Below are positions 5,796-6,106 of a DNA stretch of 9,905 nt, in pieces. Where the stretch lies: the IMG/VR virus record IMGVR_UViG_2711768022_000003, one strand, 5' to 3'. Numbering within the stretch: position 1 is the first letter of the stretch; each line of letters starts with the position of its first letter. The notes below the pieces were generated by a model, which saw only the letters and a list, made by a program, of their open reading frames with translations, was not told the DNA's origin and made no database searches. Source of the DNA: a virus (Duplodnaviria; Heunggongvirae; Uroviricota; Caudoviricetes). The position numbers and the translations under genes are program-made.

Positions 5796-5870
5796 TGGAG
5801 CGGGCAGCGGGAATCGAACCCGCATCATCAGCTTGGAAGGCTGAGGTAATAGCCATTATACGATGCCCGC
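5796..5870 (-). tRNA. tRNA-Gly (anticodon UCC), 75 nt
   Basis: Minus-strand sequence GCGGGCATCGTATAATGGCTATTACCTCAGCCTTCCAAGCTGATGATGCGGGTTCGATTCCCGCTGCCCGCTCCA folds as a cloverleaf: acceptor GCGGGCA/TGCCCGC, anticodon loop CTTCCAA, T-loop TTCGATT, encoded CCA. Resembles E. coli glyT as recalled. Confidence 0.9.
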
Positions 5871-5873
5871 ATA

Positions 5874-5949
5874 TGGTGCCGACTACCGGAATCGAACTGG
5901 TGACCTACTGATTACAAGTCAGTTGCTCTGCCTGCTGAGCTAAGTCGGC
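5874..5949 (-). tRNA. tRNA-Thr (anticodon UGU), 76 nt
   Basis: GCCGACTTAGCTCAGCAGGCAGAGCAACTGACTTGTAATCAGTAGGTCACCAGTTCGATTCCGGTAGTCGGCACCA: acceptor GCCGACT/AGTCGGC, anticodon loop CTTGTAA, T-loop TTCGATT, CCA encoded. One A-C mismatch in the T-stem. Confidence 0.85.
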
Positions 5950-5951
5950 GC

Positions 5952-6028
5952 TGGCCCACCACCGAGGACTCGAACCTCGCACCGTCAACTTAGAAGGTTG
6001 ATGCTCTATCCGGATGAGCTAGTGGTGG
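5952..6028 (-). tRNA. tRNA-Arg (anticodon UCU), 77 nt
   Basis: CCACCACTAGCTCATCCGGATAGAGCATCAACCTTCTAAGTTGACGGTGCGAGGTTCGAGTCCTCGGTGGTGGGCCA: acceptor CCACCAC/GTGGTGG, anticodon loop CTTCTAA, T-loop TTCGAGT, CCA encoded. Unusual C1-G72 first pair. Confidence 0.8.
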
Positions 6029-6029
6029 T

Positions 6030-6106
6030 TGGTGGCCCTTGCTGGACTTGAACCAGCGACCTGGCGATTATGAGTCGCTCGCTCTGACCAACTGAGCTAA
6101 AGGGCC
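6030..6106 (-). tRNA. tRNA with CAU anticodon, most likely tRNA-Ile2 (lysidine type, reads AUA), 77 nt
   Basis: GGCCCTTTAGCTCAGTTGGTCAGAGCGAGCGACTCATAATCGCCAGGTCGCTGGTTCAAGTCCAGCAAGGGCCACCA. Anticodon arm GCGACTCATAATCGC and T-arm GGTCGCTGGTTCAAGTCCAGC resemble E. coli ileX rather than elongator Met as recalled. Ile-versus-Met identity cannot be settled without a classifier. Confidence 0.8.

Follow-up and report, generated by a model that had tools for sequence, protein, structure and literature searches.

Why would a temperate phage carry, within its late genes, a row of tRNA genes whose anticodon loops are those of its host's own tRNAs? The question is raised by a stretch of 9,905 nucleotides (nt) from a tailed virus of the Caudoviricetes (IMG/VR record IMGVR_UViG_2711768022_000003), hereafter called the window, in which four tRNA genes lie head-to-tail on the minus strand at positions 5796-6106, between the gene for the late antiterminator Q and the lysis genes. 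An original prediction made from the sequence had described them as an array decoding the rare A-ending codons AUA, AGA, ACA and GGA, and as perhaps a distinct module for rare-codon supplementation. The analysis presented here suggests that the array most likely adds to the gene dosage of four scarce isoacceptors, by which A-ending codons in AT-rich genes of foreign origin are read, the likely beneficiaries being the phage's own genes and possibly other genes of the lysogen. In kind the array is ordinary, a further member of the known lambdoid late-region tRNA cassettes that is already annotated by pipelines; no description of its exact four-tRNA composition was found in literature searches.

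ARAGORN calls exactly four tRNA genes in the whole window, all on the minus strand and together spanning 5796-6106, with coordinates that coincide exactly with the four cloverleaf tRNAs originally predicted. The Rfam model RF00005 agrees, with scores of 56.4-70.5 bits against a gathering score of 29 and E-values from 3.5e-14 to 2.7e-10. In minus-strand order the genes are a tRNA-Ile2 of the ileX/ileZ type with the anticodon CAU (6030..6106; 70.5 bits; ARAGORN label Met/CAU), a tRNA-Arg with UCU (5952..6028; 56.4 bits), a tRNA-Thr with UGU (5874..5949; 69.8 bits) and a tRNA-Gly with UCC (5796..5870; 64.9 bits), the anticodons being those claimed at the outset. The spacers between them measure 1, 2 and 3 nt and the CCA end is encoded in all four. 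These are four intact tRNA genes, with a signal far beyond chance.

The identities of the four tRNAs were examined by comparison with the K-12 tRNA genes, taken from the annotated genome. The label Met is the usual ARAGORN default for a CAU anticodon, and the earlier reading of this gene as tRNA-Ile2 is borne out by several comparisons. The gene is 89.6% identical to K-12 ileX and 96% identical to ileZ of the Shiga toxin (Stx) phages, as against 69% to metT/metU, and a sequence identical to it is named tRNA-Ile by the Prokaryotic Genome Annotation Pipeline (PGAP). Its acceptor stem (GGCCCUU/AAGGGCC) is that of ileX, with C4:G69 and C5:G68, the pairs by which TilS tells tRNA-Ile2 from tRNA-Met, where metT has U4:A69 and A5:U68. 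Judged by these features it is an ileX/ileZ-type tRNA-Ile2 and not a tRNA-Met, its C34 being presumably converted by TilS to lysidine, with subsequent reading of AUA. The tRNA-Arg(UCU), which should read AGA and more weakly AGG, has all four stems fully paired and carries A20, C35, U36 and G73. Its scaffold, which opens with a C1:G72 pair, is phage-specific and recurs in argN of the Stx phages (anticodon UCG; 83% identity) and in a 'tRNA-Lys' variant with UUU (84% identity); identity to host argU is only 73%. The tRNA-Thr(UGU), the probable reader of ACA, matches host thrU at 74 of 76 positions (97%), with the differences confined to the D-loop, and its anticodon arm (ACUGA/CUUGUAA/UCAGU) is that of thrU. 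The tRNA-Gly(UCC), predicted to read GGA and GGG, is identical to K-12 glyT at all 75 positions. The anticodon loops of all four tRNAs equal those of the host isoacceptors and in Thr and Gly the whole anticodon arms do so, whereas the anticodon stems of Ile and Arg differ from those of the host. The host isoacceptors of the Arg, Thr and Gly members are single-copy genes in K-12.

The cassette is therefore a chimera, since its Ile and Arg genes belong to the phage ileZ/argN lineage while Thr and Gly are border-precise copies of the host genes thrU and glyT. The host operon thrU-tyrU-glyT-thrT of E. coli and Salmonella holds the latter two in the same order (Gly 100% and Thr 97% identical), but tyrU and thrT are absent from the window and its Thr-Gly spacer is 3 nt long instead of comprising tyrU plus 124 nt. 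No host flanking sequence around Thr and Gly is shared with the window, and the idea that the pair arose from the host operon through a simple deletion was rejected because no spacer or flank homology remains. An origin of the tRNA genes as attP or as a remnant of integration was likewise rejected, the genes being of full length and situated in the late region, far from the integrase.

Where the array sits relates it to known systems. The slot is bounded upstream by Q (7340..7747, minus strand; PF06530, E = 2.7e-52) and downstream by a holin of the P21-type class II (4900..5115, minus strand; PF04971, E = 1.5e-35). The predicted placement between Q and the lysis cassette thus holds in outline, except that the array does not follow Q directly but is separated from it by a 1.2-kb module, which consists of isrK/C4-like RNAs and an ORF6N (Ant-like) gene; the distance from tRNA-Gly to the holin is about 680 nt. 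On the Pfam gene order and the Rfam RNA matches, the array lies in the leader of the late operon, though not immediately behind Q.

This is indeed the position, as had been proposed, at which Stx and related phages carry ileZ, argN and argO, the homologous slot holding ileZ-argN-argO in the Stx2a phage F349 and ileZ and argO in phiP27. With the cluster of the Stx phages (933W/Sp5 type; ileZ-argO in phiP27) the array shares its orientation and its place behind Q and ahead of the lysis genes; its Ile is 96% identical to ileZ, its second member is an 83%-identical homologue of argN, a TTGCA-N17-TATTAT promoter motif is shared, and both have a link to a virulence gene carried by a phage, which is stx for the cluster and ipaH for the window-type array. 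The two differ in the anticodon of the second slot (UCU in the window, UCG in argN), in the lack of an argO homologue in the window (60% identity), in the two host-derived genes, one thrU-like and the other identical to glyT, that the window appends, and in their carriers, which for the window-type array are ipaH prophages and not Stx prophages. With an argN homologue bearing UCU, no argO, and Thr and Gly added, the array is a relative with a different gene set and not the same cluster. Another known set in this slot is the tRNA-Asn(GUU)/tRNA-Thr(UGU) pair, tRNAs downstream of Q together with a bias towards ACA having been reported for SfI, Sf6, ST64T, PS3 and P21 (phage 21) (PMC3636060). That pair shares with the array its slot and a Thr(UGU) gene (PMC3636060), but the Thr lineages are distinct (66% identity, with a different anticodon stem in the SfI/P21 type), the Thr of the P21 type is resistant to OLD (PMC12445682) whereas that of the window is host-type, and there is no Asn gene in the window array.

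Is there a demand that such tRNAs could serve? The long non-overlapping open reading frames (ORFs) of the window and of three prophages that carry the array, 31,546 codons in all, were compared in codon usage with two core regions of K-12 (29,270 codons). The codons are rare in E. coli as claimed, ATA (6%), ACA (10%) and GGA (10%) being the least used of their families in the K-12 core sample and AGA (3.8%) the second-least used. All four are enriched in the prophage set: ACA occurs 13.9 times per 1000 codons against 5.2 in the host (2.6x, rank 2 of 61), ATA 9.0 against 3.5 (2.5x, rank 3), AGA 5.8 against 2.3 (2.5x, rank 4) and GGA 13.9 against 7.9 (1.8x, rank 8). The probability that the four named codons would all fall within the top 8 by chance is 1.3e-4. 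The other anticodons found in the second slot also read codons among the top 9 (UCG for CGA/CGG and UUU for AAG).

If the array acts by dosage, it would be transcribed from a sigma-70 promoter of its own immediately upstream and, after induction, also by polymerase that Q has modified to pass the terminators on either side. The polycistronic precursor would be cut by RNase P at each 5' end and its trailers of 1-3 nt trimmed to the encoded CCA; position 34 would be modified by the host TilS, MnmE/G and cmo5U pathways and the tRNAs charged by the host synthetases, the net effect being a faster decoding of AUA, AGA (and AGG), ACA and GGA in AT-rich, horizontally acquired genes.

Signals that would suit such a scheme are predicted around the array. 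A pattern scan places a sigma-70 promoter at 6116..6145 on the minus strand (9 of 12 hexamer matches), with a -35 hexamer TTTGCA/TTGCAG, a spacer of 17-18 nt and a -10 hexamer TATTAT, the motif being TTGCA(G/A)-N17-TATTAT; the -10 hexamer is separated from the first base of tRNA-Ile by 9 nt (UCUGCCUCC). Of the 12 loci in which the sequence extends far enough upstream, 11 contain the motif. In an alignment of two diverged cassette lineages with the Stx2a phage and phiP27, the hexamers are kept while the spacer is only about half conserved. Some 90 nt upstream of the array lies an intrinsic terminator resembling tR', a hairpin followed by a run of U (6193..6220, minus strand; -12.0 kcal/mol, z = -3.8), the position of which is kept at -94 to -111 in other loci although their stems and loops differ. 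It is contained in a leader segment of 125 nt (6154-6278) that follows Q directly in the locus designated L014 and occurs elsewhere in L015 and phiP27, and hence moves independently of the array. In the interval between the array and the holin, a strong intrinsic terminator is predicted at 5156..5182 on the minus strand (10-bp stem, -17.3 kcal/mol, z = -3.6), which would stop polymerase not modified by Q, together with a weaker terminator-like hairpin at 5518-5537 (minus strand; -10.7 kcal/mol) and another at 5456-5474 (minus strand). Besides the window, L009 and L030 have the strong terminator ahead of the holin; a universal terminator between array and holin was rejected, as none is clear in L014. 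Together, these predictions argue for a tRNA operon that is insulated within the late operon and would be served both by its own predicted promoter and by Q-modified polymerase.

Several observations weigh against an extra supply of tRNAs as the role of the array. Phage lambda has no tRNA genes and yet is biased in the same way (AGA 4.3x, ATA 2.8x, ACA 2.6x and GGA 1.6x), so that the enrichment does not set the array carriers apart and the tRNAs are dispensable. Late genes, to which the original prediction had directed attention, do exceed the host in the four codons (2.2x, 1.9x, 2.2x and 1.6x), but the early genes do so more strongly (2.9x, 3.6x, 3.4x and 2.0x), and the late genes of the window itself hold ATA and AGA at or below the host level (2.1 and 0.7 per 1000). 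Promoters predicted across the region are not above chance (5 found against 3.6 expected), for which reason the claim of a promoter stands on its conservation across diverged lineages. The want of a clear terminator between array and holin in L014 fits ill with a strong constitutive promoter there, and single members of an array can decay, as the Thr gene has in the loci L022 and L026. Rare-codon supplementation is thus plausible, but it is neither specific to the carriers nor aimed particularly at late genes.

These doubts lead to the question of whether the array has any role at all. It might be a neutral passenger, recombinational baggage linked to the Q-lysis junction, or serve only as punctuation for the processing of the late transcript by RNase P; this is held to be very improbable, the least probable of the explanations considered. 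The distribution of the array among prophage backbones bears upon it. The array is found between the late regulator and the holin in prophages of the myovirus, lambda and HK97 types, the structural modules of which are unrelated, and the layout of the slot (late antiterminator, array and holin, co-oriented) is the same in L008, L011, L009, L014, L015, L030 and L031. Homology to the window stops 1 nt past the 3' end of tRNA-Gly in L014 and exactly at the 5' end of tRNA-Ile in L015 (strain 504838). On such boundaries the array is a mobile cassette occupying a 'moron' slot between Q and the lysis genes. A neutral passage would agree with the fact that lambda does without tRNAs, with the ability of flanking homology to spread the cassette among co-resident prophages, and with the decay of some copies, as in the 3' deletion of Thr in L022 and L026 and the many copies of the UUU form that are not annotated as tRNAs. 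It agrees poorly with the near invariance of the array copies across unrelated backbones, with stem differences that are compensatory rather than disruptive (A3:U70 to G3:C70 in the acceptor stem of the slot-2 Arg in L015; C6:G67 to U6:A67 in the acceptor stem of Gly in L015 and in E. coli TW10690), with promoter hexamers kept amid a diverged spacer, and with an anticodon set that matches the top-ranked codons.

The cassette varies in content as well as in setting. A scan for the fused Thr-Gly junction, covering one genome per species, recovered full arrays in four copies in E. coli ECMA0423 and a version with Thr and Gly only in Citrobacter braakii and Enterobacter hormaechei; S. flexneri SFBU1023 has four full arrays, three in the Arg form and one in the UUU form. 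The decayed arrays at L022 (4173-4246) and L026 (6256-6329), which belong to one S. flexneri/ECMA0423 lineage, have a deletion in the 3' acceptor strand of Thr (74 nt, ...GUAGUCGCACC), the other three tRNAs being intact. On the C1:G72 scaffold of the second slot (seen at L007 364-440, L020 1403-1479, L023 7807-7883 and L008 1501-1577) three anticodons occur: UCU in the window, UCG in Stx argN, and UUU in a form annotated as tRNA-Lys. The form with UUU is unusual in having C33 (loop CCUUUAA), and it has U73 and, within the T stem, a mismatch of A51 with C63. A different route to the same anticodon is seen in TW10690 (L034 381-456), where a thrU-type body annotated as tRNA-Lys has acquired UUU through the single change of G35 to U, with A73 retained; this is a second, independent shift to UUU within the cassette and suggests a recurrent selection for, or tolerance of, a tRNA-Lys(UUU) with a non-host body.

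Such variants invite a defensive explanation, in which phage tRNAs replace host tRNAs cut by P2 OLD, HepS of Gifsy-1, PrrC, PARIS or colicin D. The virulent phages T4 and T5 have tRNA clusters with changes in the anticodon loop or stem that evade anticodon nucleases, and the array is like them in consisting of several tightly spaced phage-borne tRNA genes; it is unlike them in that its anticodon loops equal those of the host, two of its tRNAs are host copies, the phage is temperate and the genes number only four. The closest precedent concerns the Thr gene. The block that P2 OLD imposes on lambda is due mainly to cleavage of host tRNA-ThrU(UGU), which occurs in the anticodon stem at CNG motifs that are paired, and phage Thr(UGU) tRNAs with differing stems, including that of phage 21 from the same slot, rescue cells, while extra host thrU gives little or no protection (PMC12445682). 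In addition, tRNAs for Thr and Ile are among those cut by HepS, the bodies of Ile2 and Arg in the array, anticodon stems included, are unlike those of the host, and UUU, an anticodon often targeted by nucleases, has arisen twice independently among variants of the cassette. Yet all four anticodon loops are host loops, and the anticodon arms of Thr and Gly equal those of thrU and glyT down to the paired CNG motifs cut by OLD, Gly keeping the paired CAG/CUG of glyT. The rescuing Thr of the P21/SfI type has the stem GUCGC/GCGAA and is only 66% identical to that of the window, and it is the host type that, added in extra copies, hardly protects (PMC12445682). The cleavage signature of P2 OLD, as defined in that study (PMC12445682), is present in the window Thr (5874-5949) and Gly (5796-5870) and in K-12 thrU and glyT. 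With their host-type arms, Thr and Gly are thus predicted to be nuclease-sensitive dosage copies and not escape variants, and escape from OLD or from anticodon nucleases was rejected for these two, the arms being identical to those of the host. For Ile and Arg, with their differing stems, such escape is conceivable. For the array as a whole, a role in counter-defence appears improbable and is disfavoured by these sequence features.

How widely, and in which bacteria, is the array carried? At least 80% of it is held by about 601 of 5,426 complete E. coli genomes. The slot-2 tRNA-Arg(UCU) occurs in 16 of these genomes, at 42 places (median 3 and maximum 5 per genome), and the slot-2 UUU form in 777 (median 1 copy), many of the latter being 95-96%-identical copies without a PGAP tRNA annotation. 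The set of four had originally been described as less familiar and possibly distinct; the Arg(UCU) form is indeed uncommon, but PGAP already annotates tRNA-Ile, Arg, Thr and Gly, and the window array is one allele of a common cassette, the second slot of which is usually occupied by the UUU 'Lys' form.

The window-type array (at least 98.8% identical) has a much narrower range. It was found in 10 of the 5,426 complete E. coli genomes, exactly all 10 that are positive for ipaH, which are strains of enteroinvasive E. coli (EIEC), and also in S. flexneri, usually in 2-5 copies per genome. Nine of the ten have ipaB-ipaC on the invasion plasmid pINV, and the tenth, FDAARGOS_943, has a shortened pINV. 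The association with ipaH/pINV gives a Fisher p of about 1e-24, uncorrected for phylogeny, and the 10 genomes represent about 4-5 lineages with at least four pINV sequence types. The genome CFSAN029787 is that of a known EIEC strain of serotype O96:H19 (PMC10470518). In it, the array and ipaHe are found together on one lambda-like prophage, which is located between btsS and mlrA, and in three other genomes an array lies 27-32 kb from a chromosomal ipaH. Physical linkage to ipaH is thus a part of the association.

This distribution raises the possibility of lysogenic conversion, in which the lysogen would be the chief beneficiary and self-promoted, multi-copy arrays would raise the supply of the four tRNAs and so relieve a limit on translation of the AT-rich pINV/ipaH invasion regulon of Shigella and EIEC. 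The explanation is regarded as rather unlikely, though more probable than counter-defence or neutral passage. A conserved predicted promoter flanked by terminators within the late operon means that the array could be expressed in lysogens. Apart from the exact coincidence of the array with ipaH and the near coincidence with ipaB-ipaC, the explanation draws on the copy number of the Arg form, which exceeds that of the UUU form, on the predominance of Arg-form arrays in S. flexneri SFBU1023, and on arrays that are intact in prophages with frameshifted structural genes. The codon usage of pINV is also in its favour, as ATA (9.6x), AGA (7.6x) and ACA (4.2x) are the three most over-represented codons of the pINV entry region and the four codons together make up 8.8% of all codons there against 1.9% in the host. 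It has been reported that pINV is enriched in AGA, AGG, GGA and AUA and that modification by MnmE/G of tRNA-Arg(UCU) and tRNA-Gly(UCC), exactly two of the isoacceptors of the array, is needed for pINV protein levels and for colonisation (PMC12283395). Prophage tRNA genes are not mentioned in that report (PMC12283395), nor are tRNAs in the EIEC/ipaH literature checked. A simpler account, by contrast, is that the array travels with ipaH-converting phages, being located in the same prophage or 27-32 kb away; the 10 genomes amount to only about 4-5 lineages, and an excess of these codons is to be expected of AT-rich foreign DNA of any kind.

A further step would be to regard the array as a pathoadaptation of Shigella and EIEC, a self-promoted, multi-copy translational helper of the invasion regulon analogous to, yet distinct from, ileZ-argN-argO beside stx, which is considered about equally doubtful. 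It would add genes for those tRNAs whose reading of AGA, GGA and AUA was shown by experiment to limit the synthesis of pINV virulence proteins (PMC12283395). On this view the recurrent changes of anticodon, among UCU, UCG and UUU in the second slot and from UGU to UUU in the third, would represent tuning to the codon demand or the defence landscape of the lineage. Extra dosage of scarce isoacceptors for AT-rich foreign genes, the phage's own and possibly others, remains the preferred explanation.

The surroundings of the array were also analysed. The order of genes on the minus strand, as assigned by Pfam, is RusA (7716-8087), Q, ORF6N (6296-7057), the tRNA array, an ORF of 98 amino acids and the holin, followed by HNH, TerS, TerL and portal genes. 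Four consecutive Rfam matches occupy the minus strand between Q and the ORF6N gene (6897-7312): c4-a1b1 (7260-7312), isrK (7223-7299; 77.5 bits), C4 antisense RNA (7114-7197; 71 bits) and sRNA-Xcc1 (6897-6980; 77.4 bits). The match to sRNA-Xcc1 overlaps the 5' part of the ORF6N reading frame, so that the true start of the gene is probably further downstream. Together with ORF6N these RNAs look like an antirepressor module under antisense-RNA control, of the P1 immI type or the isrK-anrP type of Gifsy-1, inserted between Q and the late leader. The stretch of 640 nt at 5156-5795, between tRNA-Gly and the holin, holds the three terminator-like hairpins and the 98-amino-acid ORF (5322-5618), which has no Pfam match and is without a PGAP annotation in the 99.6%-identical L009. 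In Stx phages, stx sits at the position of this stretch between tRNA-Gly and the holin. The backbone of the window resembles phiP27 and the SfI/SfII phages, the part with the array matches loci of S. flexneri and EIEC at 99% identity, and at most 57% of the window is covered by any one complete E. coli genome or phage record; by this patchwork, the window is a mosaic lambdoid prophage.

Some of the related prophages have features of their own. The array prophage of FDAARGOS_944 carries in its nin region a gene for QueH, an epoxyqueuosine reductase and tRNA-modification enzyme (L009 22916-23581), and that of strain 504838 a paralogue of ompC, flanked by Q and the gene for a DNA methyltransferase (L015 22305-23402). 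In EIEC prophages (L031 15804-23385; L030 18515-20106), terminase, portal, capsid or tail genes are frameshifted while the arrays are perfectly intact, which could mean that arrays are kept while their prophages decay, or could stem from errors of assembly.

As a phage cassette of tRNAs for rare codons, the array is textbook material and carries little weight by itself. Its composition, a chimera of phage-lineage tRNAs and exact host copies, bears on the way in which temperate phages acquire tRNA genes. If the link between the array and the invasive lineages reflects function and not linkage to ipaH, the dosage of prophage-borne tRNAs would constitute a previously unrecognised layer of virulence control.

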